Source: a virus (Duplodnaviria; Heunggongvirae; Uroviricota; Caudoviricetes). Taken from it: 64,000 bases of DNA. Shown here piece by piece: positions 8,717 through 58,337 of the stretch (position 1 is the first letter of the stretch; the number at the start of each line of letters is the position of its first letter). The notes beneath the pieces are model-generated. The model ran no database searches. It saw only the letters and a list, made by a program, of their open reading frames with translations, and had not been told where the DNA came from. The position numbers were made by a program, and so were the translations under genes. The stretch lies in the IMG/VR virus record IMGVR_UViG_3300032954_000003, positions 18,847 through 82,846 of that record. One strand, written 5' to 3'.

Positions 8717-8718
8717 AA

Positions 8719-8989: not shown

Positions 8990-8991
8990 AG

Positions 8992-9369: not shown

Positions 9370-9373
9370 GAGA

Positions 9374-9952: not shown

Positions 9953-9955
9953 AAT

Positions 9956-10030: not shown

Positions 10031-10032
10031 AC

Positions 10033-10105
10033 GCGCCTGGGCGGATTCGAACCGCCGATCTCATGCTCCGGAGGCATGCGCTCTTTCCTCTAAGCTACAG
10101 GCGCA
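10033..10105 (-). tRNA. tRNA-Arg (anticodon CCG)
   Basis: Acceptor GCGCCTG pairs with CAGGCGC, anticodon loop CTCCGGA, discriminator G. Confidence 0.7.
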
Positions 10106-10181
10106 GGTGTGTTGGTCAGTCTAGAACCGTTTTGGGAGGTCTAGTCAAGTAGAGAAGTGCTGTCAAGGGTAGACGAGTCAA

Positions 10182-10254
10182 TGGGACGTCAGGGATTTGA
10201 ACCCCTGGTCGGCCGGTTAAGAGCCGGCTACTCTACCAATTGAGTTAACGTCCC
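10182..10254 (-). tRNA. tRNA-Lys (anticodon CTT)
   Basis: Acceptor GGGACGT pairs with ACGTCCC, anticodon loop CTCTTAA, T-loop TTCAAAT. Confidence 0.75.
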
Positions 10255-21076: not shown

Positions 21077-21492
21077 GTTCACTAGATAAGGCATGGGAGA
21101 AGAAAGTCGCTGAACTGCTGACTGGTAAGGTTGCCTCACTCAACCGACCAGCGGCTAATCTCTGGATTGCTCTCACTACAACTGTGCCGACGCGGGTGGC
21201 CAACGGCGCGGCTGCAACCTATACGGGCTATGCCCGGTTTGAGATTGAAGCAGCCAAGCTCAACATTACCGAAGGCACGGCGTCAGAACCCACACTCGTC
21301 AAGAACGCCGAAGAAGTGAAGTCGCCGGAATGTACGGGTGGCGAATCGACTATCAAGGGCATCGAGCTGTGGACTGCCGAATCGGGCGGTGAACGTGTGG
21401 CATGGGGTGTACCGACAGAAGAACTGACAGTTACGCCAACTCACATGCCATACGTGTTTGCCGCAGAAGCGCTGGTCTGGCAGTTCAACTAA
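21073..21492 (+). CDS. hypothetical structural protein
   Basis: 139-aa ORF with start coupled to the previous gene. Confidence 0.5.
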   Translation: MSSLDKAWEKKVAELLTGKVASLNRPAANLWIALTTTVPTRVANGAAATYTGYARFEIEAAKLNITEGTASEPTLVKNAEEVKSPECTGGESTIKGIELWTAESGGERVAWGVPTEELTVTPTHMPYVFAAEALVWQFN

Positions 21493-21496
21493 CGTT

Positions 21497-36642: not shown

Positions 36643-36947
36643 CTCTCATCCCGCATTTCGCTGCGCCCTTTGCCTTTAGTGCGAAGGGCGTAGTGAATGT
36701 TACCGAACAAGATAGTCAGCAGGAAATCTCAGACTGCATCTTCAATGTTGCTAGTTGCTTTGAAAACTTCCGCGAAGACTTGCCCGAATTTGGCATACCG
36801 GATCTAACATTCGAACAGATCCCACTGAATCTCGAAGCACTACAAGCGGCACTAAACCGCTGGGAACCGCGAGCGGAACTTACGCTTGAAGAAACAGAAG
36901 AACTTATGAATCCAGCAGCGCGTGCTGTATCGATCGAAGTGTTCTAG
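36639..36947 (+). CDS. baseplate wedge protein, GPW/gp25 family
   Basis: Segment FGIPDLTFEQIPLNLEALQAALNRWEPRAEL matches the GPW_gp25 signature (WEPR). Confidence 0.6.
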   Translation: MTLIPHFAAPFAFSAKGVVNVTEQDSQQEISDCIFNVASCFENFREDLPEFGIPDLTFEQIPLNLEALQAALNRWEPRAELTLEETEELMNPAARAVSIEVF

Positions 36948-38317: not shown

Positions 38318-39282
38318 CTCTTTACCTTTCGTATCTCTAAACCGCTGGTGTCGAGTTCAAGTTCTTCCACAACATGTAGTAATGCTCTGGACAATAGAGG
38401 TCGATGGTTTGGCATGACCTTGAGTTCAAGGTCTATGTCCAGTATGGATTCGTCTCCACGCCAGATATCGAACCAACCTACTTCCTCAATGTCGTCGTCT
38501 GGCCGAGGTGTACCGCTTTGGTGCTTAGCAGCGAACAGTAAAGTCTTGACCTTGTCTTGCTCGTTGCGATAGCGCCAGTCATCAACTTTGAAGGAACCGA
38601 GATACATTGGGTCCGTGATTTCTATGTGTGTCTCCTCATGCACCTCGCGCCGAGCATCCTGCTCAAATGTCTCTGAGGATGGATCAGCGAACCCACCGAT
38701 CAAGCGCCATAGCTTCTCGTCTGCCTTACGGCACAGAAGAATACGCTCGTAATCCTCACTGAAAACAGCTATATCTACTGTTGTAAACGAGGTAGGAAAG
38801 CGACTCTGCGAAGCCCACACAACACCAGCGCGCCAATCTGGCGAGTTCTTAGTTCGCCGGCGTCCCACCTCCTTTCGAAGCTGGCTGCCAGATACTCGGA
38901 TATAGTGCTCAGGCTCAAGTACCTCAGTAGGGTATGCCCCTCTGTAATGCTCTATGAATGAGTCCCGACCACCATATAGGATTGGACTCTGGGCAGGCGT
39001 GGTAACCTTGGCTATCTCAGCATCGAGCTTACGGCTCCAAAGCTGATCGTTGTTGACGTCCTGTATATAGAGAACATTGAGGTCTGGATAGGCAGCTAAA
39101 AGCATCTGCTTTCGCGCTTCAAAATCCAGCGGATTCTCAGCTGTTACTGGCAAAGGTGACAACCCAAGAAAGACAATCACCTTGTGGTGTTTGGCACAGA
39201 CGCTCTCAATCAAATGTCTGTGCATCCCATGCAAGTCGTGGACTTGAAAACGTCCCACGATGACGCCTACGTCGTGTTCCAT
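38314..39282 (-). CDS. nadM: bifunctional NMN adenylyltransferase / Nudix hydrolase (NadM-Nudix)
   Basis: Cytidylyltransferase motif GRFQVHDLHGMH (HxGH). C-terminal Nudix box GGFADPSSETFEQDARREVHEETHIEI. Confidence 0.75.
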   Translation of the reverse strand: MEHDVGVIVGRFQVHDLHGMHRHLIESVCAKHHKVIVFLGLSPLPVTAENPLDFEARKQMLLAAYPDLNVLYIQDVNNDQLWSRKLDAEIAKVTTPAQSPILYGGRDSFIEHYRGAYPTEVLEPEHYIRVSGSQLRKEVGRRRTKNSPDWRAGVVWASQSRFPTSFTTVDIAVFSEDYERILLCRKADEKLWRLIGGFADPSSETFEQDARREVHEETHIEITDPMYLGSFKVDDWRYRNEQDKVKTLLFAAKHQSGTPRPDDDIEEVGWFDIWRGDESILDIDLELKVMPNHRPLLSRALLHVVEELELDTSGLEIRKVKR

Positions 39283-39346: not shown

Positions 39347-39715
39347 ATGGGCTATAGCGATCCGCAACGGCAGCGCGAGTATCAGCGAGAGTGGGTGGCT
39401 AAACGTCGCGCGGAATATTTTGCTGACAAGTCGTGCGTTGTCTGCGGTAATACCAATGACCTTCAGCTTCACCACCTCGATCCAGCGCAAAAGATCAGTC
39501 ACAACATTTGGGGTTGGCGACGTGAGCGCATGGAAGCCGAGATAGCCAAGTGTGAGGTTCGCTGTTCCGCTTGTCATCGCAAACACCACTATGTATTATG
39601 GCGTAAGCACGGCATCGGCACTTATATGAAGAAGGGTTGTCGCTGCTTTATCTGTTATAGAGCAAAGGCAGCAGCGACACGACGTGAAACTCGATACGGA
39701 GGCGGCGCGAGTTGA
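39347..39715 (+). CDS. HNH endonuclease (small)
   Basis: CVVCGNTNDLQLHHLDP...CSACHRKHH pattern. Confidence 0.65.
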   Translation: MGYSDPQRQREYQREWVAKRRAEYFADKSCVVCGNTNDLQLHHLDPAQKISHNIWGWRRERMEAEIAKCEVRCSACHRKHHYVLWRKHGIGTYMKKGCRCFICYRAKAAATRRETRYGGGAS

Positions 39716-39794
39716 ACGCGCAGACCGCCGCTAAGGACGGCCACGAGGTTTAGCAAACCCGCTGGCGCACCACATGCCCAGCACCTCCAAGCTT

Positions 39795-40124
39795 TCAAAA
39801 CCCCACCTTCTTTTTCTTAGTAGAAGGCTTGGGTGGTGCTTGTAGTATACGACCTAAGGCGCTCTCAAACACCATGAAGTCTCTGTCTTCCTCACTGAGG
39901 AGCGGAGTGGGCTGATGACCACCCTTGCGCCTTGGGCGAAGTATTTCATTGAGTCTGTTAGGCGAGAGCCCCGCCTCCTTTGCAATCTCCTCAGGATCGA
40001 CACCAGCATCACGAGCCTCAATGCACCTTTCCGACAAGTCCTTGAGTGCTTCCATCTGCGCTCGCACAGCTTGAGCCCGTTTCCATGCTGCGCTACGGAC
40101 TGCCTCAAGAGTGTCCTTGGTCAT
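39795..40124 (-). CDS. HTH DNA-binding protein; ATG starts 1 nt after the tRNA-Asn 3' end
   Basis: HTH EIAKEAGLSPNRLNEIL. No space for an RBS between the tRNA and the ATG. Confidence 0.45.
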   Translation of the reverse strand: MTKDTLEAVRSAAWKRAQAVRAQMEALKDLSERCIEARDAGVDPEEIAKEAGLSPNRLNEILRPRRKGGHQPTPLLSEEDRDFMVFESALGRILQAPPKPSTKKKKVGF

Positions 40125-40125
40125 A

Positions 40126-40197
40126 CTGGCAACCTGGGATTCGAACCCAGAACCGTTCGGTTAACAGCCGAGCGCTCTGCCATTGAGCTAGTTGCCA
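40126..40197 (-). tRNA. tRNA-Asn (anticodon GTT)
   Basis: Acceptor TGGCAAC pairs with GTTGCCA, anticodon loop CTGTTAA, discriminator G. Confidence 0.7.
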
Positions 40198-40324
40198 TTT
40201 TGTTCTAATTTTTGGTCGGTTCACCGCGCCGACGCTTCAGGATAGCGCCTAGCAGTGATTCCGAATGATCCCATTTACCAAACAGATACTTCCAAATCAT
40301 TGACCACTCCTTTGTAGTGTCTAG

Positions 40325-40396
40325 AACGGGTGGCGAGGATCGAACTCGCTCTTAGAGCTTGGAAAGCTCTCGTGCTGCCAAGTACACCTCACCCGC
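40325..40396 (-). tRNA. tRNA-Gly (anticodon TCC), atypical A8 and G1.U72
   Basis: Cloverleaf with anticodon loop TTTCCAA and T-loop TTCGATC. Position 8 is A and 1-72 is a G.U pair. Confidence 0.5.
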
Positions 40397-40538
40397 GAAG
40401 AAATTGCCGTCGCCTAGAGCTGCCGCTTCAGCTCTAATTGACGGACTTGCCCTATTGGTTTATAGAAGGGCTATACATGCCTATTTCGGCCTCACGCGAG
40501 CGGTGCGGCATATTAGCTGTAGCTGCTTTTCGCGTTAG

Positions 40539-40628
40539 CGGAAAGCGGAGGAGTCGAACCCCTGCCTCGTCTTAGGAGACAACTGGTTTTCAAGACCAGC
40601 GCCGAGACCGACCTCGGCCGCACTTTCC
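40539..40628 (-). tRNA. tRNA-Ser (anticodon TGA), type II
   Basis: Anticodon stem-loop CTGGT-CTTGAAA-ACCAG, long variable arm GTCTCCTAAGAC, discriminator G; 90 nt. Confidence 0.65.
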
Positions 40629-40770
40629 ATATGTGCGGATTACCCCAACCCTTCGGCTTTCCGCAAGCTCGGTCACCTACCGAGTTCCCTCAGATAAGAG
40701 ATGAAATGTCACTCCCCGCATAACGCAACACTTCATTCCGCGCGGGTTAGCGGACCCTACCCTTATCCTA

Positions 40771-40843
40771 AGTGCACGGTGGGATTTGAACCCACGGCCT
40801 TCACGTTGGCAACGTGACGCTCTACCAGCTGAGCTACGCACAC
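40771..40843 (-). tRNA. tRNA-Gly (anticodon GCC)
   Basis: Acceptor GTGTGCG pairs with CGTGCAC, anticodon loop TTGCCAA, discriminator U. Confidence 0.65.
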
Positions 40844-41574: not shown

Positions 41575-42033
41575 TTAGATTAGGTCTGTAGCCCAGTTGA
41601 CTACCTGGATTTCATTGTCCAACTTCCGCAACTTTGCAGAAGTCTTATCAGCTTTTTCATGCAGTGCCTTTACATCCACATGCCGTGTGAGCTTTAGCTC
41701 AGACCGCATATAGCGGAAAGCACTAGTGTCACCTTGAGCAGCATCAGCCGCTTGCTTATAGGTGGCGATCAAGCCAGCCAAACGGTCACGTTCGGCGAGC
41801 GCATCTGTGAGTGTCCCCTTCTTGAACTTCGTAGAAGCGTTTGTATGGTTGATACGACCGATTAGGACCGCTAGGGCCTCATGAACCGTCTCTGCTTCTG
41901 AGATGAGCGTAGACGCGTTCTCAGGAGGTGTTGTATCCTCTTGTGCCGCTGCACTCATACTGATGCGGCTACGTAGTTCGCTAATGCGCTTTTGTAAGCG
42001 TGCGCGCTCTGAAAGCGCCTCTCCTAGTTTCAT
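41575..42033 (-). CDS. hypothetical helical protein
   Basis: The ATG (MKLGEALSERARLQKRISELRS) has an AAGGTGAG RBS; the track start at 42102 is an extension. Confidence 0.5.
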   Translation of the reverse strand: MKLGEALSERARLQKRISELRSRISMSAAAQEDTTPPENASTLISEAETVHEALAVLIGRINHTNASTKFKKGTLTDALAERDRLAGLIATYKQAADAAQGDTSAFRYMRSELKLTRHVDVKALHEKADKTSAKLRKLDNEIQVVNWATDLI

Positions 42034-42063
42034 TCTCTCACCTTGGTTTACTTGGTTACCGGA

Positions 42064-42135
42064 TTGCCGACCGAGGATTCGAACCTCAACCTCAGGGGCC
42101 AAAACCCTGCGTCACTGCCTTTAGACTAGTCGGCA
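42064..42135 (-). tRNA. tRNA-Gln (anticodon TTG)
   Basis: U1-A72 acceptor TGCCGAC pairs with GTCGGCA, anticodon loop TTTTGGC. Confidence 0.6.
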
Positions 42136-42208
42136 CTGGCGACCGAGGGCTCGAACCTCGAATACTGCGTCCAGAGCGCAGCGTCTTTCCTATTTAGACT
42201 AGTCGCCA
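42136..42208 (-). tRNA. tRNA-Gln (anticodon CTG)
   Basis: U1-A72 acceptor TGGCGAC pairs with GTCGCCA, anticodon loop CTCTGGA, discriminator G. Confidence 0.65.
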
Positions 42209-42282
42209 TACCCGCCGAGGGATTCGAACCCCCACTTTCCTGTTCTTGAAACAGTTGCCTCTACCGATTGGGCTACACGGGC
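42209..42282 (-). tRNA. atypical type-I tRNA with anticodon CAA (Leu UUG codon) but short variable arm; isotype undetermined
   Basis: 74 nt: GCCCGTG-TA-GCCC...AGGC-A-ACTGT-TTCAAGA-ACAGG-AAAGT-GGGGG-TTCGAAT-CCCTC-GGCGGGT-A. A73, G37, 5-nt variable loop. Confidence 0.5.
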
Positions 42283-42289
42283 TTGTACA

Positions 42290-42364
42290 TACCGCTGGTA
42301 GGATTCGAACCTACACTGACCGGAGCTTAAATCCGGTGCCTCTGCCAGGTTGGGCTACAGCGGC
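42290..42364 (-). tRNA. atypical type-I tRNA with anticodon TAA (Leu UUA codon) but short variable arm; isotype undetermined
   Basis: 75 nt: GCCGCTG-TA-GCCC...AGGC-A-CCGGA-TTTAAGC-TCCGG-TCAGT-GTAGG-TTCGAAT-CCTAC-CAGCGGT-A. Its 5' end overlaps the stop of CDS 42355..43041. Confidence 0.5.
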
Positions 42365-43041
42365 TCAATTACTACTGGTGGGTTGATGGGTCTGTAAATC
42401 GCATCCATGTGCGCAACATTATAGATGTTAGTCTCTCGTCCTTCGTACCTCAGTGTATATTGACCGTATCCCTCGTGAATATGACCACAGACAACGGTAC
42501 GTACACGTTGGGTTGCAACATTCTCTCGAAGCTCCTTTGAGCCACAATACTCGTAGCCTGTAATTCGATTGCCTACTAGATCTCCTCTGCCAGCTAATGG
42601 GCCGTGCGACAGTAGGATGTCTGTGTTCCGTGGGATGTTAGCGAAAGCTAGTCTAGCCTCGTCACCTTCCTTCTGAAACGCCCACCCAGGCAAATTAGGT
42701 GTCCAAGGTGTTCCATAGATGGTGAGGCCGTCTACCTCAGTGCCTGAATCCTCAAGGTAAGTTAGCTTTGGGATCTCCTCGACAGCTGCTTTACCTTCTT
42801 CGGTCTCAAGCCAGAAGTCATGGTTCCCAGCAACGAGGATCACACGCTCTGTAGGTAATGCGGCAATCCACTCAGCAAACGTTTCCTTCGCCCACTGCGT
42901 TTGGTCTGCCGGATGATGGCTACCATTGACTGGTGGTAAGTCTCCACCGATAAGAAGCAAGTCACAAGGCTCAATCTCAGGTAGCGCACCATGGAGATCG
43001 GATGTAGCAATGATGTGCATTACTCTCTTGGCTTCCACCAA
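42355..43041 (-). CDS. calcineurin-like metallophosphoesterase
   Basis: Motifs DLHG, GGDL, AGNHD and GHIHE. The start is either 43041 or the ATG at 43018 (MHII...). Confidence 0.65.
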   Translation of the reverse strand: MVEAKRVMHIIATSDLHGALPEIEPCDLLLIGGDLPPVNGSHHPADQTQWAKETFAEWIAALPTERVILVAGNHDFWLETEEGKAAVEEIPKLTYLEDSGTEVDGLTIYGTPWTPNLPGWAFQKEGDEARLAFANIPRNTDILLSHGPLAGRGDLVGNRITGYEYCGSKELRENVATQRVRTVVCGHIHEGYGQYTLRYEGRETNIYNVAHMDAIYRPINPPVVIEPL

Positions 43042-43235
43042 TCGGAAAACTCTGAGGAGCTGAGTCGATGCATTGCATGAGACGTCACAAACCCCTGCAA
43101 TACATGGACCGCTTGAGTTAGCTCACTACGATTGTACTGTAGTGGTCCGCGCTCGTCCATCTCAATGATTGCTTTAGCAGCATCCTCAATGGCTAGCATT
43201 GCGCGCAACTCATTCTCGTCAAGGATACTTTTCAT
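43020..43235 (-). CDS. hypothetical small protein (71 aa)
   Basis: ORF overlapping the start of the phosphoesterase gene; no clear RBS. Confidence 0.35.
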   Translation of the reverse strand: MKSILDENELRAMLAIEDAAKAIIEMDERGPLQYNRSELTQAVHVLQGFVTSHAMHRLSSSEFSDWWKPRE

Positions 43236-43369
43236 GCTGGTCTGTTGTGGAAGGTTTCTGGATCAGGGTCGAAGCCTAGGCATGGGCACTCGGTTTCGTT
43301 CTCGTCATCCAGCACATCGATGCAAGGTCCTGGCATTACACCGCCACCCTGTGTGGAGTAGTGCATCAT
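43236..43369 (-). CDS. hypothetical small Cys-containing peptide (44 aa)
   Basis: Its stop TGA overlaps the ATG of 43020..43235 (ATGA coupling). Confidence 0.25.
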
Positions 43370-43417
43370 GACCACACTTACAGGTGCTATAGATTGTGGC
43401 TTCTAACTTGTTCATAG

Positions 43418-43504
43418 TACCGCCCGAGGGACTCGAACCCTCAATGCCTATCACGGCAAACTGGTTCCTAAGACCAGCGTGTTTACCAATTTCACCAGAG
43501 CGGC
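43418..43504 (-). tRNA. tRNA-Leu (anticodon TAG), canonical type II
   Basis: 87 nt. Anticodon stem-loop CTGGT-CTTAGGA-ACCAG, long variable arm TGCC-GTGATA-GGCA, A73. Confidence 0.65.
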
Positions 43505-43524
43505 CTGTGTCTAGCTGGCTAGAA

Positions 43525-43605
43525 GTGCCGAGGGAGGAATCGAACCTACCTTGTCGGAGACCACCGGGTTACAGCCGGCTACCTGGCCATCAGGCGTCCT
43601 CGGCA
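43525..43605 (-). tRNA. tRNA-Tyr (anticodon GTA), type II
   Basis: 81 nt. U1-A72 acceptor, anticodon loop CTGTAAC at canonical positions 32-38, variable arm GTC-TCC-GAC. Confidence 0.55.
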
Positions 43606-43610
43606 TTGAG

Positions 43611-43684
43611 CGGGTGGGCCGAGAATCGAACTCGGGATTACTGGTTTTGGAGACCAGTCGCGGACACCAACGCCGCACTCACCC
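43611..43684 (-). tRNA. tRNA-Trp (anticodon CCA)
   Basis: Anticodon stem-loop CTGGT-CTCCAAA-ACCAG, T-arm CCGAG-TTCGATT-CTCGG. One A.C mismatch in the acceptor. Confidence 0.5.
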
Positions 43685-43726
43685 CTAAGAGTAAGTGTTG
43701 GAGTCGCTGGTATCGCCATCGGAAAG

Positions 43727-43798
43727 TCCGGGTGGATGGAATCGAACCATCTCTGCCTGCTCCCAAAGCAGGTGTGCGAGCCACTACACCACACCCAG
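43727..43798 (-). tRNA. tRNA-Pro (anticodon TGG)
   Basis: C1-G72 and A73 (Pro-like). Anticodon loop TTTGGGA, T-arm GATGG-TTCGATT-CCATC. Confidence 0.65.
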
Positions 43799-46844: not shown

Positions 46845-47957
46845 ATGGCCTTCAAAGAAACTACACGTTACAAACTGGACTACGCCGAAGGTCCAACGCT
46901 CGTATCTGAATACCCAACCGTAGACAGTAACAAATCTAAATTACTGGATGAAGTAGTCAACGAACTGCAAGACATCATCCAAGCTGGTGTAGTCAGTTCG
47001 GCTGATTGGTCTTTCACTGCCAAAGTAATCGAAGTTACAGGCGAACTTGAATCCGAAGGCGAAGTGGCCGCATCTCTCGCATGGCTGCCAGATCCTACTG
47101 AAAACAAAAAACTGATGCGGTCCAAATCATCCAAAGCTGCGATCTCAGCCAAAAAACCAGCGGAACTTCCTGCTGAAACCAAATACATGCCGATTGCGTT
47201 TGAACTTACAGCTAGCACCTGGAACGCTGCACCAACGGTCTCACTTCACTCAGGGACTGAACGTGCCACGCTAAAAGAAGCTGAAGAAAAACCACCGTCT
47301 GCAACAGCAGGTAAGTCTCAGATACGTCTAGTCGTGCTGAAAAACACTGGCGGTAAATACAAAATCGAACACCAAGAAGATGCACGCTCGTTCATTACCG
47401 CCGCGCCACCAGCTCCTACGATCCTACGTGAAGAAGGCGTGATAGCGATAAAGAACGGTGAATCCATTCAGGTGCAGAAGAATGGTGCCACCGTTTCACT
47501 ACCTGCCTCTACTGCTAACGGCTCTGTATTGATCTGGTGCTGGGCAGAAGGTACAGGTAGCTGCAAAGTCAAAACGACTGGTGGAGCCAAAATCTACGGT
47601 GACTTTGTCTCCGCTGTTGAAGAAGTCGCTCTAGAGACCGGCCAACACTTGCTCCTGCATAACAACGGCGTCAACTGGATTATCGTTGCTGGTGAAGCAA
47701 AGCGCGAACAGACCTACACCGAAAAAACATTCACCAAAGCAGAAGCAGAAGCGGGCGTCGAACCGAGTGCAAGCCGCTCGGCGTGGGTTATAGCCGGGCC
47801 ATCATCAGCGGGTGAATTCGGGGCCGGCAACGGACCCCGAGTGGAAGGAAAACTCCTACCGAACAGCTCGGTAGTGAAGTCGATCGGTTTCTACGTGCCA
47901 CCGGGGCAGAAGTGGACCGCGAAAGTTGAAACAACAACCTCCACGCTGCTCCTCTAA
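46845..47957 (+). CDS. tail fiber protein candidate
   Basis: 370 aa, Thr/Ser/Ala/Gly-rich, follows the J-I pair. Confidence 0.45.
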   Translation: MAFKETTRYKLDYAEGPTLVSEYPTVDSNKSKLLDEVVNELQDIIQAGVVSSADWSFTAKVIEVTGELESEGEVAASLAWLPDPTENKKLMRSKSSKAAISAKKPAELPAETKYMPIAFELTASTWNAAPTVSLHSGTERATLKEAEEKPPSATAGKSQIRLVVLKNTGGKYKIEHQEDARSFITAAPPAPTILREEGVIAIKNGESIQVQKNGATVSLPASTANGSVLIWCWAEGTGSCKVKTTGGAKIYGDFVSAVEEVALETGQHLLLHNNGVNWIIVAGEAKREQTYTEKTFTKAEAEAGVEPSASRSAWVIAGPSSAGEFGAGNGPRVEGKLLPNSSVVKSIGFYVPPGQKWTAKVETTTSTLLL

Positions 47958-48273
47958 GTGTGCCCAAAGGGTGACCTAAGGGGTTACGGCTATATGGAAT
48001 GCTTGAACGGCTTAGAATCGCCAAGCCGCATACGCAAGGCTACATACAAGGAACGTCACAGCAAACGCTACAAAGCTGCCGGTTATGACCCATGCCGTTA
48101 CACTAGCTACAGCAATGAAATAACGGACAGGACGCGTTCTAGCAGCTACACGACGTTTTGCGTTTCGCCGCGCCCACCGATACTCCTTGCGTGTTGCGTA
48201 ATTCTCTCGGTTTAGTTGAGTGCTCATGCAACGTAGGATAGCAGTGGACCGACGCTAGTGCAAACGCCGCTGG

Positions 48274-48789
48274 TCACTCATCAGTCTCTCCGTGGTCTCT
48301 GGGGGTGTGGGCTGCTGAGAGCCAGTTCTCGAACGCTGGTCGTAGCTCGGCGGGTAGCTCGCTCTCGCGGCCCTCGTATGGCCATTCGCCGTTGTAGCCC
48401 TCACCGCTGTGCGCGAAGCCAGCCACGTAGGCCGCCAGCAGCTCCTCATCTGTCGGCTCACCGGACCGGACGGGCTCGGCCAACTTGTCGAAGGCGTCGG
48501 CTATGGCCGCCTCGAACCGATAGGTGCTGCTGATTGGGCCCCAGCCTGTCAGCTCCGCAATGAGCTCGTCGTGCGTGTGCATCCGGTCCCAGAACCAGCA
48601 CATCCGGGCGTGTGGCGTGCCAGCACCGATCGGGCCGGTCTCCTCGTGGTCTGTGACACCAGGGATACCGCCCTCCACATCGCCGGGCCAATAGGTCGGG
48701 CTGCCCCGGACGGGCTCGTAGGAGCAGGTCCTCTCGTCGCTGGTGTGGACCTTTACGTGAGAGCCGCAGGTGGGGCAGGTGTCAGCCAT
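48274..48789 (-). CDS. hypothetical protein with N-terminal Zn-ribbon (GC-rich island)
   Basis: GGAGGAG RBS precedes the ATG (MADTCPTCGSH...). About 68% GC. Start overlaps the upstream stop. Confidence 0.55.
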   Translation of the reverse strand: MADTCPTCGSHVKVHTSDERTCSYEPVRGSPTYWPGDVEGGIPGVTDHEETGPIGAGTPHARMCWFWDRMHTHDELIAELTGWGPISSTYRFEAAIADAFDKLAEPVRSGEPTDEELLAAYVAGFAHSGEGYNGEWPYEGRESELPAELRPAFENWLSAAHTPRDHGETDE

Positions 48790-49288
48790 TCGACTCCTCC
48801 GAGGTAGGGGTGGTTGGGTTCTGGGCTGCGAGTGCTGCGCGGGCCACGGTTCCGGCGGGGGAATTGGCACAGTCCTCGTTGGTAGCGATGAACCCCAGGG
48901 CCGCTTTGTAGCGCCCTCCGACCAGCGACTCGCGGTCCCGCTGTTCCCGATAACTCTGCTCGCGTGCAAGTGCCCCGTCCCGCTCCTCCCTCAGAGCCCT
49001 TGCGTCCTCTTCTGCCGCCTCTGCTCGCCGGTTTTTCTTTTCCGCCAGCTCGCGCAACGACTCCCGCGCTCGGCGGTGCATGGCGATCTCCTCTTCTGCA
49101 TGGGAAAGGGCGGACTCGGCTTGCTCGGCTCCGACTTCCTCGATGTAGTCGCAGGCATCGACCCATCCGGCGTTGTAGGCCACGCGCTCAATGACGCTCT
49201 GAGGGTGATGGCGCTCGCAGTGCTCCTGCATAGCGCTCGGATGGCGAGTCTCAGCCACGGGGTCTCCTGGGGATGGATGGTCAGGCAT
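48782..49288 (-). CDS. hypothetical coiled-coil protein (GC-rich island)
   Basis: GGGAG RBS plus ATG (MPDHPSPGD...); coupled to its neighbours. Confidence 0.5.
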   Translation of the reverse strand: MPDHPSPGDPVAETRHPSAMQEHCERHHPQSVIERVAYNAGWVDACDYIEEVGAEQAESALSHAEEEIAMHRRARESLRELAEKKNRRAEAAEEDARALREERDGALAREQSYREQRDRESLVGGRYKAALGFIATNEDCANSPAGTVARAALAAQNPTTPTSEESNG

Positions 49289-49604
49289 CGACCGGCTCCC
49301 GTGCGATTGAATCCCAGAAGCGCTTGGAGCCATCTACCTTGCACTCAAGGCCGCAGATCGTGCATTTGCCGTGGTAGTTCCACTCGACCTTGCCGCCCTC
49401 GGTCCACCACTCGTAATCCTCGCGGAAGGTCCGGTACTTGTTGTCTTCGGCGTCCGGGAGGTCCGGCAAGTCGGCGCGGCGCTGCTCAAACTCCTCGACG
49501 GGGATCTGGCCGTAAAGCGCGTCAACTTCGCGCTTTGCCTCTTCGGCGGTTTCCTTGGCCTGCTGCAAGCATCGCGGGCAGGCTGCCCAGTTATCGGCAC
49601 TCAT
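49281..49604 (-). CDS. hypothetical Zn-ribbon protein (GC-rich island)
   Basis: GAGAGGAGCGAG RBS. CPRC...CTICGLEC motifs. Confidence 0.55.
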   Translation of the reverse strand: MSADNWAACPRCLQQAKETAEEAKREVDALYGQIPVEEFEQRRADLPDLPDAEDNKYRTFREDYEWWTEGGKVEWNYHGKCTICGLECKVDGSKRFWDSIAREPVDA

Positions 49605-50117
49605 GGCCGCTCGCTCCTCTCACTAGATGGTGTGGTCCTGCCTGCTAGCAGCGCGTTCGTTTCGTCGATGATTTCCTGCGCCTCGTCGGACTCGGGCGGC
49701 GTTGTCGTGGCTTCCCAGAATCGTCGCGTTCGGGCCAGCACCCGCAGCGCCTCCTCCTTCTGGCGCTTCTCCTCGGTGTAGGCGGACTCGACCCGGGTCG
49801 GGAAGATGGCCAAGTCGATGTACTGGACACCCGCAGTTGCCCAGACGCCATGCAGCACCCAGGATTCGCGCCCGTGTGGTCCGAGCTTGGGCTTGTCGCT
49901 CCCTTCCGGTCCCTCGGCGACGAACCCCTCTCGGAGCAGTGCGTCGATGAGGGCTTGCGTCCCGCGTGCGGGCTCAGTCCAGGGCACGGCCACAATGTCG
50001 AAGTCCCGCGCCTCGCTGCCGTGTCGAGCGATGGCGTAGCCCGTCAGGTATCCGGCGTGACGCACACGCTCAATGATTCGGTCCAGTGCGGCCTCCCGTG
50101 GCTCAGTGTGATTGCTC
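49601..50117 (-). CDS. minimal nucleotidyltransferase (Pol-beta superfamily, MNT-like) candidate
   Basis: HGSEARDFDIVAV fits the hG[GS]...D.D NTase motif. AAGG RBS plus the ATG MSNHTEP. Confidence 0.45.
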
Positions 50118-50459
50118 ATCCGAACGCTGCCTTGATCGCCAGGCATCGGGGGCCTCCCGCTGACGCTTGGCTGCCTCGTACTCGGGGCTGCCCTCGGGTG
50201 GCCACGGGCCGGGCGAGAAGTCTTCCCAGCGAGTCACGATGCGCCGCTGATTGGCCGGTCCGGGATAGGTGCGCTCCTCCACCGTCGCCCCGCACGCCTC
50301 TAAGAAGGCGTGAATGGCGGCTTCGGCCTCCTCAACATCTTCGGCATCCTCAAGCGGCGAGCGGCCGTAGCACTCCTCGTAGCTCATGGCACAGCGGCCA
50401 CCGTCGTCCCACTTGTACTGCGGTTCGCGGTCGTACGTGGCGCGGATGTGTGCCTCCAC
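50103..50459 (-). CDS. hypothetical acidic protein (GC-rich island)
   Basis: ORF overlaps the start of the NTase gene; the start codon (GTG at 50459 or an internal ATG) is uncertain. Confidence 0.4.
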   Translation of the reverse strand: MEAHIRATYDREPQYKWDDGGRCAMSYEECYGRSPLEDAEDVEEAEAAIHAFLEACGATVEERTYPGPANQRRIVTRWEDFSPGPWPPEGSPEYEAAKRQREAPDAWRSRQRSDEQSH

Positions 50460-50498
50460 AGCCTCAGGGTGGCAACCTCAGATCAGGGGTGGGCTCAG

Positions 50499-50831
50499 TC
50501 ATCGCGTACCTCGGGTGTTCAGCTCACTATTTCTCGCAGCTACAGCTACACGAGCATCCGCCATAGCTTGATGGAACTTCGATTCCCATTCTGGGTCGTC
50601 GTCCGGTATGCGCGCACGTATGCTTGTTGCTAATACAACATCACGACCTCGTATTCCTACGTATGACATCTTTTCTAACACTTCGGTGACGTTGTTTTTA
50701 GAGCGATGGTCTGCAAACCAGCGAGCTTTACGATAAAGGTGCTGATCGTGACGTATTAGCCAACGGCGTCTGTAGTAAAACGCAATCGCTACGAGAACCA
50801 CAAGGAACAGAAGCACACCGAGGTCTGGCAT
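50499..50831 (-). CDS. small membrane protein (N-terminal TM helix)
   Basis: N-terminus LGVLLFLVVLVAIAFYY. Immediately follows the lipoprotein gene on the same strand. Confidence 0.5.
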   Translation of the reverse strand: MPDLGVLLFLVVLVAIAFYYRRRWLIRHDQHLYRKARWFADHRSKNNVTEVLEKMSYVGIRGRDVVLATSIRARIPDDDPEWESKFHQAMADARVAVAARNSELNTRGTR

Positions 50832-51791
50832 TTAGTGGGTCACCGCAAATCCTGCGCCTGGCGCAAAGGTTGTAACGTTTGGCGGAATTGCCTTTAGCTC
50901 ATCGATTTGAGCGCATGCAGGGCAGTGTTCGTAACCATGTTGACGTTCCTCATTTGCTTGTGCTTCCAGCTTGGCTTGTGCAACCTTGGCTCGTGCTGAA
51001 CCAACGGCTGCGAACTGCGCTTGTGCCTTATCGATTTCATTCTGGATAGCTTCTGGCAGTGTTACGTGTTCAAGCAGGAAGCTAATGTTCGAGAAGTAGT
51101 CATTACCGAGCGCCGATGCAATGTCGGTCTTGAGGTTAGCGTTGACTGCTTCTTGAACCTTTTGCAAGTTACCGTTGTTTTGTCCACCGCTGGACACGCT
51201 TGAACTGTTGTGGATTAGCGCACAAGATGACACAAGCTGTGGACACGTAACCGTACCGATGCTGCGTCGCAGATCATTGTTGATGATCGGTCGCACAACT
51301 TGGCTTAGCAGCGCACGCCAACCTTCTTCGCCTTCATAGGGCTTTAGCGCTTCGGCACCTTCATTGCTGGATTGAAATGTACGGATACCAAAGCGACTAT
51401 CGAAATCCTTGAGCAGTCTTACACCTGTTACTGAGCAGTTGAATGCCGTCGTGAAGTAGAAGGTACCTTCAAGTCCAACGCGAACACCATCTTGCGTTGG
51501 CACCTCAACGACATCTGCCCCCTTGCGGTCACCTTGACCAGATTCCGATGTAATGGTGTAGTTACGCTGTACGCTGTCCGCTGGGTACCAGTGGACTTCC
51601 GAGCCAAAACCTGGCCATGACCAGCCGGTCCCAGGACAAATAACCTTACTGATCCCATGACCATTGAACCACGTCCATGGTGCAATAAAGGAATGGCCTG
51701 TCCGTACTACTCCAATCTGCCCAGCACCCGGTGTAGCACCGCACGCTGCTAGCGCCAATCCAAGTGCTGCAACAGCGAAAAGTCGCTTCAA
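50832..51791 (-). CDS. SPFH/band-7-like lipoprotein
   Basis: Lipoprotein signal MKRLFAVAALGLALAACGA (lipobox LAAC). Central and C-terminal regions with Ala/Gln-rich coiled coil resemble an SPFH domain. Confidence 0.5.
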   Translation of the reverse strand: MKRLFAVAALGLALAACGATPGAGQIGVVRTGHSFIAPWTWFNGHGISKVICPGTGWSWPGFGSEVHWYPADSVQRNYTITSESGQGDRKGADVVEVPTQDGVRVGLEGTFYFTTAFNCSVTGVRLLKDFDSRFGIRTFQSSNEGAEALKPYEGEEGWRALLSQVVRPIINNDLRRSIGTVTCPQLVSSCALIHNSSSVSSGGQNNGNLQKVQEAVNANLKTDIASALGNDYFSNISFLLEHVTLPEAIQNEIDKAQAQFAAVGSARAKVAQAKLEAQANEERQHGYEHCPACAQIDELKAIPPNVTTFAPGAGFAVTH

Positions 51792-52201
51792 GTGATGCCT
51801 CCTGTTACATTGATGTCCACTGATCTGATGTCCTCATCGTTGATGAGATATGAACGAACCACCGGCTTTTGCCATGGTCCAACGCCAACTATCAGCCACT
51901 CAACATCTGGCCAGTTCTCCGCAAACTGGACGTCAACCATTGAAGGAAACGCAGGGATACAAATGTGCGAGTGATAGATGGCACCAAGCTTGAAACCTTG
52001 AGACTCGAACTCTGTGATCTGCTCGATAAGTTCGAGCGGATCAATAATGAACTCGACCTCCGGTTTGTCTGAGATGTTGATAGAGCGATGCATGCTTGTC
52101 GCTTCGTTATCCTTGGTGGCAATAAGTCCACAACACTCAAACGGCGCATCCTCCCACGCATGGGTGAGGATGTCGGCTAGGATGTTGGCGTTGATGTCCA
52201 T
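51788..52201 (-). CDS. JAB/MPN (JAMM) metallopeptidase
   Basis: JAMM motif elements PFECCG...YHSHICIPAFPSMVD (E ... HxH ... S..D). Confidence 0.65.
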   Translation of the reverse strand: MDINANILADILTHAWEDAPFECCGLIATKDNEATSMHRSINISDKPEVEFIIDPLELIEQITEFESQGFKLGAIYHSHICIPAFPSMVDVQFAENWPDVEWLIVGVGPWQKPVVRSYLINDEDIRSVDINVTGGIT

Positions 52202-52675: not shown

Positions 52676-54277
52676 CTATTCCAGCGGCTTTGCCGACAAA
52701 GGCGTTACCACTACTGTTGTCGAGTTACCTTCGCCACTCAGCAACATTGTGAACACTTCCCCGAGCAATCCTCCAAGTCCTAGCAAGCCGCTGTGGCAAG
52801 AGAACTTACCGATAGCGGATGTGCCATTGAGATGGACTTCGCTTTCGAGACTTGTAAGAGATTGATGTCCAGTGAGATAAAGCTTTGCCTTGCTTTCGCA
52901 GCTCGTGGGGATCTTCAGGCCGAGCATCGACAGGTACTCAATGCCGATTTGCTCGGTGCCGGTGGTGCGGAGCTTTGCTTCGGTGGCGCTTTCCCATTCG
53001 GTGTTTCCGGTGATGGCGCCGCCGATGTTTAGGCCGAGGCTTGCGACGGTGAGACCCTCCCATTCGAGTGGGGCTCTGAAAGTTCCCGTGCTGAATGAGG
53101 TGTTCAGATTCCCGTACAGTGCTGACAGACCCGACGCTTCCCCCACTGGGAAATTGAACGACTGACCCAACTTCTTGTCCTTCAGGCTGCTGCCCGCTAG
53201 AGACCACTTCGTTAGATGTAAGACTTTTGGGGCCGGTGCGCCGCCTCCGCCGACGTAGTTGTCGAGGAGGCCCTGGCCGATGACGGTGACGGGTTCTGGG
53301 AGGTCCTTGACTTCGTAGGGAGCGCAGCAGGGTTCATAGCCGCCTTCGCTCACGCCGATGCCGAGCATCCCGCGCAGGTTGCCGTCCCAGGTGTAGGCCT
53401 TGCTGTTCTGGAGTGCGATGAAGCTCTCTGTGCCGGAGGCGGCCTGCACGGCTCCCGTGATCGGTGCGGCGTGCATCTTGCCGTTGGGTTCGAGCATGTA
53501 GAGCGAGCCGTTTTCCGTCTGGGCGAGGCCGTCTGTCCACCCAGGCCAGAGGTTGACGACGCCGTTGGCGCGTTCGGTGAGTGCGTCCTCCGAGCATCCC
53601 ATCACCTTGCCCTTGGCGGTGAGGACGTACACGTCCTCCAGGGCGGGCTCGACCTGCTTCGCTTCGCTGACGCCTTCCATGACCACGGGGGAGTCGCCCC
53701 CGCCGCGTGAGGCGAGGCAGAACTGGTCGTATGTGTTCGTGCCCCAGTTGACGACCTGGCCGCCCGAGGTGACCGCGGCGGCCGATGCGGGGCCGGCGCC
53801 GATCGAGGTGGCGACCAGTCCGGGCACGACTTCCGGTAGATGGTGCGTGTCGAACTGCGGCTCATAGAGCGTGCCGTTGATCGTGGCGCCCCAGGTGACC
53901 ACGCTGCCGTTGGAGAGCAGCGCCATCGCGAAGTGCTCACCGGCCGCGATGTTGACGACGTGTTCGAGCGGCAATGCGACCGGGGTGTCCGAGCTTGCCG
54001 GTGAGGCGACGCCGAGCTGGTCGTATTCGTTCGAGCCACAGGTGTAGACCTTGCCTTCGCTGCCGAGGAAGACGACGAACTGTTCGCCGCCGGCTATCGC
54101 CGTTGGCTTGATCGACGACGCCGCGGCTGGGATGCTGCTGTACGCCTGTTCTGCGAACGGGATGCCGTCGCAGAGTGCTCCGTCTTCGTTGCCTCCGATG
54201 GAGCCGAGACCCGCCATTGCCGAGGGCGCTAAGACGAGCGCTGCCAGCGTGGCGACGAGGATTGACCCGAGTTTCAT
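52676..54277 (-). CDS. secreted RCC1-repeat beta-propeller protein (GC-rich, host-like)
   Basis: Signal peptide MKLGSILVATLAALVLAPSAMA. Repeats YTCGSNEYDQLG and WGTNTYDQ. About 68% GC. Confidence 0.6.
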   Translation of the reverse strand: MKLGSILVATLAALVLAPSAMAGLGSIGGNEDGALCDGIPFAEQAYSSIPAAASSIKPTAIAGGEQFVVFLGSEGKVYTCGSNEYDQLGVASPASSDTPVALPLEHVVNIAAGEHFAMALLSNGSVVTWGATINGTLYEPQFDTHHLPEVVPGLVATSIGAGPASAAAVTSGGQVVNWGTNTYDQFCLASRGGGDSPVVMEGVSEAKQVEPALEDVYVLTAKGKVMGCSEDALTERANGVVNLWPGWTDGLAQTENGSLYMLEPNGKMHAAPITGAVQAASGTESFIALQNSKAYTWDGNLRGMLGIGVSEGGYEPCCAPYEVKDLPEPVTVIGQGLLDNYVGGGGAPAPKVLHLTKWSLAGSSLKDKKLGQSFNFPVGEASGLSALYGNLNTSFSTGTFRAPLEWEGLTVASLGLNIGGAITGNTEWESATEAKLRTTGTEQIGIEYLSMLGLKIPTSCESKAKLYLTGHQSLTSLESEVHLNGTSAIGKFSCHSGLLGLGGLLGEVFTMLLSGEGNSTTVVVTPLSAKPLE

Positions 54278-55475: not shown

Positions 55476-55513
55476 CCGCTATTTGCGCGACTGCTTGCCT
55501 AGCCGGCTAGAGA
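55476..55513 (+). promoter_or_regulatory. conserved TTGCGN - CTAGCCGGCTAGAGA element upstream of the S12-like gene (one of seven copies)
   Basis: Copies at 5071-5101, 11688-11721, 24245-24261, 29047-29082, 43510-43525, 55476-55513 and a variant at 60444-60458. 12-bp palindrome CTAGCYRGCTAG. Confidence 0.5.
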
Positions 55514-55530
55514 TTGCTACCCTTTACCGC

Positions 55531-55923
55531 ATGCCAACGACTAATCAACTTGTTAGAAAAGGTCGCAAGCGCCCGTCAAAGACAAGCAAAAGCGCGGCGC
55601 TGCGAGGGAATCCGCAGCTACGTGGTACAGTTACGCGTGCGTACGTTATTAAGCCACGTAAGCCAAACTCAGCACTTAGGAAGGTAGTGCGCGTACGTTT
55701 GTCTAATGGCGAAGAGTTGACGGCAAGCATACCCGGAGAGGGACATAACTTGGCTGAGCACCATTCAGTGCTAGTAATTGGTGGAAATCGTCCCGATCTC
55801 GGTGGTGTTAGCTACAAAGTTATTCGTGGTGCGCTCGATCTATCTGCGCCATTTTCAGTCAATCAAAAGCCCGGAGACAAACGCAAGCAGTCACGTTCAA
55901 AGTATGGAACCAAGCGCACTTGA
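55531..55923 (+). CDS. rpsL: ribosomal protein uS12 (RpsL) homolog, divergent
   Basis: [13 protein letters not shown]...[16 protein letters not shown]...IPGEGHNL...[13 protein letters not shown]...[10 protein letters not shown] aligns along its full length to bacterial S12 and most closely resembles actinobacterial RpsL. The conserved KPNSALRK is intact. The loops around K42 and K87/P90 are altered. Confidence 0.8.
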
Positions 55924-56197
55924 ACTCAGACTTAGACGGGAGCGTGTCTCTCGTGCACGTTTGCGCGCAGCCGATACCGCTGAGCCACTTATGGTTCGCG
56001 TGACTGCTCTTGTCGCTGCCATCGCTTGCGATCCTGACGAACCGCTTGGTCCTGCTCCAAACTACACAGCACTACTTGGCAGTATCGCTGGACAAATCGG
56101 CTGTACACCAGCAGAGGTCCAACTTGCACTGACGGCAGCGCAAGAAAGTGGCTTGCAGAACCGCTTCGTGAAGGATTACCTGAGTGAGCGTACATAG
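55904..56197 (+). CDS. hypothetical protein (97 aa), overlaps the 3' end of the S12-like gene
   Basis: ATG in an alternate frame 20 nt before the S12 stop; no RBS. Confidence 0.3.
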
Positions 56198-56687
56198 GGG
56201 TGCGCGCGTTGTCCCTCAGTGCGGTTTGTGTTTTGGACGATATGACATCGTCTACGCGTCACTGAGCTTTGGTTATCTCTGCGAGGGTTGCAGAGATAAG
56301 GTGCATGGAGCAGCGCCGGCGAAGAACTATGAGTTCCAAGTAGAGCGTTCTAAGCGGCGCAAGTTGCGTAAGGTCCGTATTGGACCGCACCGCAATGAAT
56401 CCACTACACGGCTGCTTGTACGTATCGCCGAAAGAGATGGTTGGACTTGCCATCTCTGTGATCTGCCTGCCGACCTACAAGCACCAATGGGTCCAGACTT
56501 CGTTACGTTTGACCATCTCCGGCCTCGGGTGAAGCAAGGACAGCGCACGTATGAGAATGGTCGTATAGCACACCGCTTCTGTAATACCTTGCGCGGTGTT
56601 AGCTCTGTAGAGCAAGCGCGTGAGCGATACCAAGAACGGATGGTAACTCGGATACAGAAAGCTCTGAAGGAGAGAGGCGGTAGCTAG
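56184..56687 (+). CDS. HNH endonuclease
   Basis: WTCHLCDLP...DFVTFDHLRPRVKQG...ENGRIAHRFCNTLRG is the HNH motif. The GTG start is uncertain. Confidence 0.65.
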   Translation: MSVHRGARVVPQCGLCFGRYDIVYASLSFGYLCEGCRDKVHGAAPAKNYEFQVERSKRRKLRKVRIGPHRNESTTRLLVRIAERDGWTCHLCDLPADLQAPMGPDFVTFDHLRPRVKQGQRTYENGRIAHRFCNTLRGVSSVEQARERYQERMVTRIQKALKERGGS

Positions 56688-57746: not shown

Positions 57747-58337
57747 TTAGGTTTCGCGGTCGCTGACCTGCCTTGATCGTAGGTCGAACTTGTCCCATGG
57801 CTTCGGTGTGCCACGCTTACTACCTTTGAGGTGATTCTTGGCTAAAGCTCGTTCGTGGGCGATCTTTCTTTGTTCCAGCGGCGATGGAACTGATGCTACT
57901 CCGTATGGAAGAGGGAACGGTTTGAACCCCTGTGGTGCAGGCAGCTGTTTTGTGACTACCTTCTTGGTGACTACAGGCGGTCGTTTAGGTGATGATCTGG
58001 GTGACTTGTGATGGATCTGTCGGTGACAGCGCTTGCAGACTAAAATCAGATCGTCTAGCCGCTCTGCACCTAGGCGCACGTAAGTTAGGTGGTGTAGCTG
58101 GGTGCCAACAGCGCCGCATGCGCATCGTTGAGGTCTGTTGCTCTGGCGGTATCTTTTGTGAATATCTCGCCAATGATCCGATGCGAGATATTCAGCATAG
58201 ATTTTGTACCCTAGTGGGCGTAACCGTCCAGCAATTGTTGAGGGGCCGTCTGGGACCTCTTGTAAGCGCTCAACGCGTTGCCGCGAGGGTGTGCTTAGCG
58301 ATTTGCGGCGTGTACGTCGATGGCCGCGTTTAGCCAT
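57747..58337 (-). CDS. HNH endonuclease
   Basis: CACGAVGTQLHHLTYVRLGAERLDDLILVCKRCHRQIHH. Confidence 0.6.
   Translation of the reverse strand: MAKRGHRRTRRKSLSTPSRQRVERLQEVPDGPSTIAGRLRPLGYKIYAEYLASDHWRDIHKRYRQSNRPQRCACGAVGTQLHHLTYVRLGAERLDDLILVCKRCHRQIHHKSPRSSPKRPPVVTKKVVTKQLPAPQGFKPFPLPYGVASVPSPLEQRKIAHERALAKNHLKGSKRGTPKPWDKFDLRSRQVSDRET

Follow-up and report, generated by a model that had tools for sequence, protein, structure and literature searches.

A stretch of 64,000 nucleotides from the tailed-phage record IMGVR_UViG_3300032954_000003 (positions 18,847 to 82,846, here called the window and numbered from its first letter) contains an island rich in guanine and cytosine (GC), with five packed genes, A to E, on the minus strand at 48274..50459. 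We think it fairly likely that this island arose by horizontal acquisition and is a mosaic: its five small accessory genes would be unrelated to each other and derive from a high-GC actinobacterial phage pool. They would have kept the composition of their donors, and each would most likely act on its own. One of them, gene B, encodes a predicted minimal nucleotidyltransferase (NTase) and appears to belong to an undescribed clade that is phage- and prophage-borne across many phyla.

The composition of the window is not uniform. The GC content of the island is 65.6%, compared to 52.4% in the remainder of the window. A sequence-only reading of this DNA had noticed the jump; its value of about 68% was slightly high. 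Among all 2186-bp segments of the window (mean 0.527, standard deviation 0.029) the island is the GC maximum, and the next segment outside the island reaches 0.60. In steps of 200 bp, GC ranges from 0.62 to 0.695 inside the island and drops to about 0.49-0.53 within about 100 bp on either side. Both switches coincide with gene borders, which confirms that the island edges are sharp. Third codon positions tell the same story: GC3 is 0.71-0.80 in the island genes (GC2 is 0.44-0.54) and 0.42-0.56 in the backbone genes. A GC3 well above GC2, as in coding DNA, confirms the five minus-strand open reading frames (ORFs) that had been proposed. No such pattern is seen in the long ORFs on the plus strand of this DNA.

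The island is set within a minus-strand operon of backbone genes of about 51% GC, near the 3' end of that operon. At the upper edge lies a gene for a predicted membrane protein of 110 aa (50499..50831, minus strand, 49.5% GC). At the lower edge lies a gene for a 71-aa protein with a hydrophobic C-terminus (48012..48227, minus strand, 50.9% GC). The latter is the final gene of the operon; the convergent tail operon ends at 47957, and a terminator-like hairpin is found at 47874-47856. A scan for promoters and terminators gave none specific to the island, which is apparently read together with the operon genes around it. In a search of the flanks for att-like or transposon ends we found only short repeats at chance level. 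A near-repeat of 14 nt (48137-48150 and 50531-50544), with its copies in the two backbone genes that flank the island, was judged coincidental.

A GC-rich stretch could also be produced by a chimeric assembly, and the sole source of the island is indeed one metagenome contig from one sample. Yet we consider a chimera extremely unlikely, because on either side of the island the backbone operon continues: the strand is unchanged, the flanking genes are intact and the gaps between genes are short. A chimera would leave one breakpoint and not an insertion inside an operon. Furthermore, four other GC-rich genes (described below) are embedded in the window equally neatly.

Along the minus strand the genes follow each other as A (50103..50459), B (49601..50146), C (49281..49604), D (48782..49288) and E (48274..48789). 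Strong ribosome-binding sites of the GGAGG type had been proposed for all five. They are present for four: GGGAGG in front of B, GAGGAG in front of C, GGGAG or AGGAG in front of D and GGAGGAG in front of E. Gene A, in contrast, is preceded merely by a poorly spaced GAGG. Similarly, the start of each gene was said to overlap the previous stop. This holds for A and B (44 nt, or 14 nt if B starts at ATG 50117), for B and C (ATGA) and for D and E (8 nt). The overlap of C and D (8 nt) depends on the start of D: it exists only if D starts at ATG 49288. A metagenome gene caller placed the start at GTG 49258, 23 nt past the stop of C and behind AGGAG. The start regions of B and D also resemble each other. 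A 26-nt segment (50134-50159 and 49276-49301) is 77% identical, with the minus-strand pattern CGGGAG..N..CGATGCCTG, and both proteins begin with MP(D/G). This likeness may be due to chance or to a common translation-initiation cassette.

Thus arranged, the island genes would be expressed as a compact, probably translationally coupled run. Small phage genes are ordinarily packed in this way, and the tight spacing is no evidence for a common function; overlaps between stops and starts are usual in the small-gene arrays of comparison phages. In the neighbourhoods that we inspected in CcrSC, Skog and DatBoi, abutting or overlapping genes are the majority.

If the five genes formed one system, their families should be found together elsewhere. 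We searched six-frame translations with profiles for B, C and the conserved domain of E (hidden Markov models, E≤1e-3) and with phmmer for A and D. The test covers 194 loci: 162 with B, 26 with C and six with the E domain. None of the 194 holds two of the five families. No homologues of A, C, D or E lie near 160 B loci, and the other four genes are absent from the C loci and from the E loci alike. Recurrent co-location in unrelated genomes, the mark of a multi-gene system, is therefore not seen for A to E, and the functional cassette that the sequence-only reading proposed does not recur.

The same reading compared the block to toxin-antitoxin (TA) or signalling-type defence and counter-defence modules, in which a small NTase is accompanied by partner proteins. 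In such a module the Zn-ribbon and coiled-coil proteins would serve as sensors, regulators or antitoxins of the NTase. The same-strand packing, the overlapping starts and stops and the common foreign composition of A to E fit this proposal, as does the fact that a minority of B-family proteins are fused to Cys-rich or coiled-coil-looking extensions. Yet the phyletic ranges of the families differ: B is spread over many phyla, C occurs in Gordonia and Tsukamurella phages and uncultured viral contigs, E occurs in a few, mostly high-GC, phage contigs, and A and D are orphans. Searches of A to E against Pfam, NCBIfam and PADLOC gave no TA, defence, minimal nucleotidyltransferase (MNT), HEPN, AbiE or CD-NTase match. 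On reading the five protein sequences we did not see an R-x4-6-H motif. We also considered whether fusion partners of B-family proteins are homologous to C, D or E and rejected this, since there were zero matches; A has no such homology either. Hence nothing beyond adjacency speaks for a module: the families do not co-occur, the extensions are not homologous, no motif or model matches and the packing is usual. We regard a single TA, defence or counter-defence module as distinctly improbable.

We clustered all same-strand ORFs within 2.5 kb across the 160 B loci, and the commonest neighbour families (lysozymes, DNA methylases, terminase) occur at no more than seven of the 160 loci each. An NTase with a dedicated partner protein, as had been suggested, is thus not what the loci show. 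Because no neighbour recurs in more than seven loci, we conclude that B is a stand-alone phage gene without a conserved partner.

What kind of protein is B? It consists of 181 aa. Its AlphaFold2 model, computed from an alignment of the family, has a predicted local distance difference test score (pLDDT) of 84.6 and a predicted template modelling score (pTM) of 0.71. The model contains a helix (residues 17-35), two strands (37-42 and 49-55), a helix (63-72) and three further strands (76-78, 94-99 and 110-114). This alpha-beta-beta-alpha-beta-beta-beta core is followed by long C-terminal helices (118-167), which are not conserved among relatives. The conserved part of B, residues 17-117 (49796-50098, minus strand), is a core of about 100 aa common to all relatives found. 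Foldseek places Pol lambda and Pol beta on top (E 6e-4, 20-24% identity over about 115-120 columns); a fold search of BFVD returns uncharacterised phage proteins only. The core of Pol-beta-like NTases is a mixed beta-sheet of four to six strands, backed by two alpha-helices (PMC11646218). The model of B shows this core fold, three acidic residues (a DxD pair and a later D) and an hG[GS] motif before the DxD strand. From the predicted structure, the two fold searches and the invariant HGS/DxD/D signature we conclude that B is a Pol-beta-type NTase-fold protein.

The signature is found at 49997..50023 (minus strand), where H42-G43-S44-E-A-R47-D48-F-D50 combines the HGS motif with the DxD pair of putative metal ligands, the two being placed on adjacent strands. 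D48 and D50 lie at or beside the predicted strand 49-55. The putative third catalytic carboxylate is D111 (codon at 49814..49816, minus strand), in the YIDLAI strand predicted at 110-114; it is Asp in 124 of 125 aligned relatives. In this alignment H42, D48, D50, P55, W56 and R93 are invariant, and G36, Y37, G43, S44, R47, A53, H91, G92 and D111 nearly so. Position 43 is G in 124 of the 125 sequences, and position 44 is S in 122 and T in the remaining three. The consensus reads GYAxAVHGSxxRDxDLxAVPW ... KPHGRxAW ... YIDLSVMPR. Hence the Pol-beta/MNT-like hG-S...D.D motif that had been noticed by eye is present, as HGS-x3-DFD with a later YIDL, and is conserved across the family.

One feature of the motif is unusual. 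In the superfamily the canonical spacing between GS and DxD is 9-13 residues. In B and in all but one of the 125 family members it is three, and the turn or helix after GS is shrunk to a tight hairpin. This departure from the canonical motif would suit a degenerate fold that has lost catalysis and acts as a nucleotide or signal binder, a sponge or a structural adaptor. So would the very small core of about 100 aa, which has none of the fingers, thumb or helical substrate-binding domains of characterised NTases. In addition, no solved NTase is matched at the sequence level, neither by B alone nor by a profile of 125 sequences in a search of the PDB. In a family of only 27-45% identity, however, three carboxylates together with H42, R47, H91 and R93 are invariant or nearly so, which is typical of a maintained active site. 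We therefore consider a non-catalytic B unlikely; B is probably an active stand-alone two-metal nucleotidyltransferase.

Such an enzyme would act alone or as a homo-oligomer, with little beyond a Pol-X-type palm core. The hydroxyl group to which it would add a nucleotide might belong to a nucleic acid, from the host or the phage, or to a small molecule, and the transfer would serve host takeover or counter-defence. Our first guess for the acceptor is an RNA or tRNA 3' end. Given an active enzyme, a nucleic-acid (RNA or tRNA) 3'-OH is a tentative choice, favoured because of the resemblance to the Pol X palm, occasional helix-turn-helix (HTH) and Zn-ribbon fusions among B-family proteins and a single fusion to peptidyl-tRNA hydrolase (PTH2). 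In the latter protein (P0166, 222 aa, on a 1.2-kb contig) the NTase core comes after an N-terminal PTH2 domain (25.9 bits, cutoff 23). It is the sole informative domain fusion of the B family and might be read as a weak hint of a tRNA-related role.

The B family is large. An exhaustive HMMER search over 1.84 billion cluster representatives gave 1475 relatives (clusters at 50% identity) at E≤1e-3, 59 of them at E≤1e-10, and the best relative is 42-49% identical. In IMG/VR we confirmed 421 B-family loci. In genomes we found 108, from Actinomycetota, Proteobacteria, Bacteroidota, Acidobacteriota, Chloroflexota, Verrucomicrobiota and others. The GC content of these loci spans 27% to 72%. A tblastn search of phages adds relatives in Caulobacter jumbo phages, a Microcystis phage and Burkholderia and Vibrio phages. 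The best genomic relatives come from metagenome-assembled genomes (MAGs) of Solirubrobacterales and Actinomycetes. Lysozymes, terminases and integrases near the genomic loci point to prophages.

This family has escaped annotation. All named members are called 'hypothetical protein', and the two PHROGs that B matches, 35913 and 31354, are both labelled as unknown function. B has zero matches among Pfam (E≤1), NCBIfam and PADLOC models, and a word-indexed search of 5.8 billion proteins with B alone returned only itself. Apart from the two PHROGs, all matches of A to E in Pfam, PHROGs, NCBIfam and PADLOC stayed below threshold. Among the best 120 of 499 further B matches no Pfam domain was found except in the PTH2 fusion, and Pfam searches of eight long B-family fusions gave nothing informative except, again, the PTH2 fusion. 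In the literature we found no described phage NTase of the B type. A more ambitious proposal goes further than the data above: B would represent a very widespread palm-only clade of Pol-X-like NTases (at least 1475 clusters, with an HGS-x3-DxD hairpin) that phages of many bacterial phyla deploy as a stand-alone effector. The effector might, for example, attach nucleotides to the ends of host tRNA or RNA, or it might capture a defence signal. In this phage it may have gained newly juxtaposed Zn-ribbon and coiled-coil partners. As a whole we hold this proposal to be doubtful.

Among known systems, the palm of Family X polymerases (Pol beta, Pol lambda and, as a minimal example, Pol X of African swine fever virus) is among the closest to B. 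The order of the motifs is the same as in B: G-S, DxD on the next strand and a third Asp. In Family X this Asp lies in an h-D-h-x-h-h-P strand (in Pol beta RIDIRLIP, around D256), and the counterpart in B is YIDLAIFP. In contrast to Family X, which combines the palm with fingers, thumb and usually an 8-kDa or lyase domain, B has the palm-like core of about 100 aa only and no evident grip on template or primer. The spacing of three residues compares to about nine in Family X, and sequence similarity is not detectable. By any of the tested criteria, B would not be classified as a polymerase.

B also resembles the MNTs of HEPN-MNT pairs (NTP_transf_2 in Pfam), which are small (about 100-130 aa) and share the Pol-beta fold and the GS...DxD...D motif. 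Unlike MNTs, neither B nor any of its 125 relatives matches NTP_transf_2. The spacing is shorter, and H42, W56, H91 and R93 are invariants specific to the family. There is no adjacent HEPN gene, neither here, where A, C, D and E have no HEPN match, nor in the 160 loci. The tRNA-nucleotidylating toxins MenT and AbiEii and the CD-NTases of the CBASS defence system are at least about twice the size of B and have extra helical domains. B differs from all of these: it is phage-encoded and stand-alone, has no PADLOC or Pfam match and lacks an AbiEi or effector partner. In AbiE and MenAT systems a DUF1814/AbiEii-type NTase follows an upstream antitoxin of the AbiEi type with a winged HTH, a pair that we do not find here. 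Nor do we find the roughly 300-aa CD-NTase of CBASS, with its C-terminal helical domain and adjacent effector: the core of B has about 100 aa, and no neighbour is effector-like.

The other four genes have histories of their own. Gene C encodes 107 aa with an MSADNW start and a four-cysteine site, CxxC...CxxC, that is split by a helical insert. By tblastn it is 33-39% identical to hypothetical proteins of the Gordonia phages Skog, DatBoi, Mollymur, Yvonnetastic and JonJames and of the Tsukamurella phage TPA2. The family has 21 further loci in IMG/VR; a scan with the single protein C found zero loci there. C9, C12, C81 and C84 are conserved in all six aligned homologues. In C and five phage homologues M1, S2, A3, W6, C9, C12, R61, E62, E65, C81 and C84 are invariant. 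C thus carries all hallmarks of the family: the MSA[DN]xW start, the N-terminal CxxC, the FRED/YE motif and the C-terminal CxxC. Homologues such as Skog gp94, DatBoi gp53, Yvonnetastic gp88 and TPA2 orf66 share the start and the four cysteines. Unlike C in the window, they are located in small early gene arrays with wholly different neighbours.

Gene E (171 aa) is composed of an N-terminal CPTC zinc-knuckle-like segment, a conserved domain of about 75 aa (residues 30-105, at 48475-48702, minus strand) and a distinct C-terminal tail. Both C and E had been described as CxxC Zn-ribbon proteins. The two conserved CxxC pairs of C agree with this; E has only one CxxC (C5, C8) with a nearby His and Cys, and its Pfam zinc-ribbon match is weak (E 0.013). 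We would describe C and E as putative zinc-binding or helical proteins from recurrent phage families. The E domain is 67-80% identical in proteins of four other phage contigs, and its architecture varies: it stands alone in 99 aa (L173), in the middle of 296 aa (L174) or at the C-terminus of 336-351 aa (P0151, P0152). Around P0151 and P0152 we find small early genes, including ERF, Mom, methyltransferases and Endo VII. Three of the phage contigs with an E domain have 62-66% GC and one (L167) has 53%. A scan of IMG/VR with the single protein E found one locus. The AlphaFold2 model of E, made from a three-sequence alignment, is too poor for use (pLDDT 52). In L174, a high-GC phage contig, four consecutive small genes (3925-5765, plus strand) encode a near-identical N-terminal peptide, M(S/T)..GQERE(A/K), and the last of them carries the E-type domain. 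The N-terminus of P0152 resembles this repeat (..NQEREA). The repeated 5' gene end might mark gene shuffling driven by recombination.

Genes A and D are orphans. A is acidic (118 aa, GTG start, GC3 0.76) and has no matches in Pfam, PHROGs, NCBIfam, PADLOC, phage tblastn or the 194 loci. D (168 aa, or 158 aa from GTG 49258) has a helical middle rich in Glu, Ala and Arg, which make up 63% of residues 51-120; the Glu/Arg-rich protein of the sequence-only reading is therefore real. D has only sub-threshold matches (DUF6221, E 0.049) and no relatives by phage tblastn or in the 194 loci. We tried to read D and E as a split P0151-like protein and rejected this, as D matches the N-terminus of P0151 with an E of about 1. 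When the concatenated sequences of A, C, D and E were used for the word search of the 5.8 billion proteins, the output consisted of two E-domain matches only, and the four proteins themselves were missing from it.

From where did the genes come? The relatives of C lie in regions of Gordonia and Tsukamurella phages with 60-68% GC. Because C and most E relatives are found in phage DNA of 60-68% GC, and because the nearest genomic relatives of B come from actinobacterial MAGs, the donors are more likely to have been other phages or prophages of high GC (actinobacterial) than a host chromosome. The window offers further examples. Four genes outside the island have a GC content of 0.60-0.62 and a GC3 of 0.67-0.78: they encode an unassigned protein (139-762), a pectate-lyase-like protein (21458-23035), a protein with a phage depolymerase C-terminal domain (35126-36247) and an RCC1-repeat protein of 533 aa whose N-terminus is hydrophobic and resembles a signal peptide (52676-54277). 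These four genes suggest that host-interaction genes have been imported repeatedly from high-GC donors.

The block could also have been taken directly from the chromosome of a high-GC host. Its 66% GC is within the range of many Actinomycetota, and B relatives are present on bacterial MAG and genome contigs. However, every family that has relatives is carried by phages. Relatives of B are found in IMG/VR and in cultured phages and those of C in phages of Gordonia and Tsukamurella, while the E domain occurs on phage contigs where ERF, Mom, methylases and Endo VII lie nearby. The genomic B loci, with their lysozyme, terminase and integrase neighbours, again indicate prophages. A GC3 of 0.71-0.80 would also be closer to phages of 62-66% GC than to a chromosome of 67-70% GC. 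A direct chromosomal origin therefore seems very unlikely to us. The sequence-only reading had proposed a recent acquisition from a high-GC, host-like genome. The foreign composition and the high-GC gene pool stand; the nearest relatives are phage genes instead of host genes, and 'recent' cannot be shown, because the sampled sequences include no close donor (B shares less than 50% identity with its best relative).

The picture of a mosaic of independently acting genes with an active enzyme among them is not free of counterevidence, and several points weigh against it. Among 50,697 phage records, and in IMG/VR as probed with the SPFH protein and a baseplate protein, we found no sister phage without the island; insertion is thus inferred from composition only. 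No sampled donor exceeds 50% identity for B, or does so beyond the 75-aa domain for E. A module that was newly assembled in this phage may fit the absence of co-occurrence elsewhere, and tight coupling would fit the co-expression of interacting partners. The family of B contains possible parallels: 13 of 256 proteins (about 5%) have at least two CxxC motifs, and one fifth are longer than 170 aa, with extensions that, by reading, often look coiled-coil or Cys-rich. In general type these modules match C, D and E, but without detectable homology. Finally, the GS-to-DxD spacing of B lies outside the canonical range.

The mosaic resembles moron-like phage accessory islands, in which compositionally deviant small genes lie between conserved backbone genes and members are shuffled independently. 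It differs from such islands in that no promoter or terminator of its own was detected.

The window is a portion of a metagenome contig of 108,815 bp (ENA ERZ27256576 k141_4285166). Megablast of 47000-52000 against the 50,697 phage records gave zero nucleotide-level matches. The capsid protein is about 30% identical to capsids of Mycobacterium phages such as Porcelain, MiaZeal and Omega, and two backbone proteins, SPFH and a baseplate protein, have no close relatives in IMG/VR. For these reasons the source is a novel large tailed phage, roughly 109 kb in size and myovirus-like, whose detectable protein relatives are actinobacteriophages. The window encodes an intein-split portal, a prohead protease, baseplate J and a P2-gpI-like tail protein. 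It also has 21 tRNA genes, all on the minus strand and in three clusters (8641-10254, 39696-40843 and 42064-43798); several of them directly abut one another.

Other genes of the window deserve mention. The gene for the 110-aa membrane protein, at the upper edge of the island, is directly preceded in the operon by genes for a Prok-JAB deubiquitinase-like or MPN protein (51788-52201, minus strand) and for an SPFH/Band 7 protein with a lipoprotein-like N-terminus (50832-51791, minus strand). This trio, at 50832-52201 and the adjoining gene, is unusual for a phage. The portal gene (6122-8461, plus strand) contains an intein with a LAGLIDADG homing endonuclease (Phage_portal, Intein_splicing, Hint and LAGLIDADG_3 matches), and an 835-aa protein upstream of it (1224-3731, plus strand) also has a LAGLIDADG/Hom_end domain. 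An ORF in backbone-GC DNA (55483-55923, plus strand) matches ribosomal protein S12/S23 (PF00164, E 3e-27, 94.9 bits, profile positions 2-103 of 110). It looks like a phage-encoded uS12-like protein, which would be unusual ribosomal cargo for a virus. A NAMPT gene (NAMPT_N and NAPRTase domains; 36944-38317, minus strand) overlaps a NUDIX gene with weak likeness to NMNAT-type cytidylyltransferases (38314-39282, minus strand), and the two make up a salvage pair for nicotinamide adenine dinucleotide (NAD+). Such pairs in phages have been reported as countermeasures to NAD-depleting defence. The annotated accessory genes also include those for an Endonuclease VII with a fused double zinc ribbon, for two endonucleases of the HNH type and for a DUF6847 protein (5088-5927, minus strand; 56184-56687, plus strand; 57747-58337, minus strand; 41575-42102, minus strand). 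The DUF6847 gene adjoins a gene for a calcineurin-like phosphoesterase (42355-43041).

Viewed as one system, the block shows the mosaicism that is ordinary in phages, which typically acquire their accessory genes in patchwork fashion. It also shows how a tRNA-rich phage genome of about 52% GC, apparently itself part of the actinophage gene pool, imports high-GC genes without amelioration, which is useful for inferring hosts and donors. The only element of wider interest is the B family: a widespread putative minimal NTase that is absent from Pfam, NCBIfam and PADLOC. Small stand-alone phage enzymes have repeatedly proved to be host-takeover or counter-defence factors. Because comparable enzymes have done so, the B family is a reasonable target for biochemical screening.

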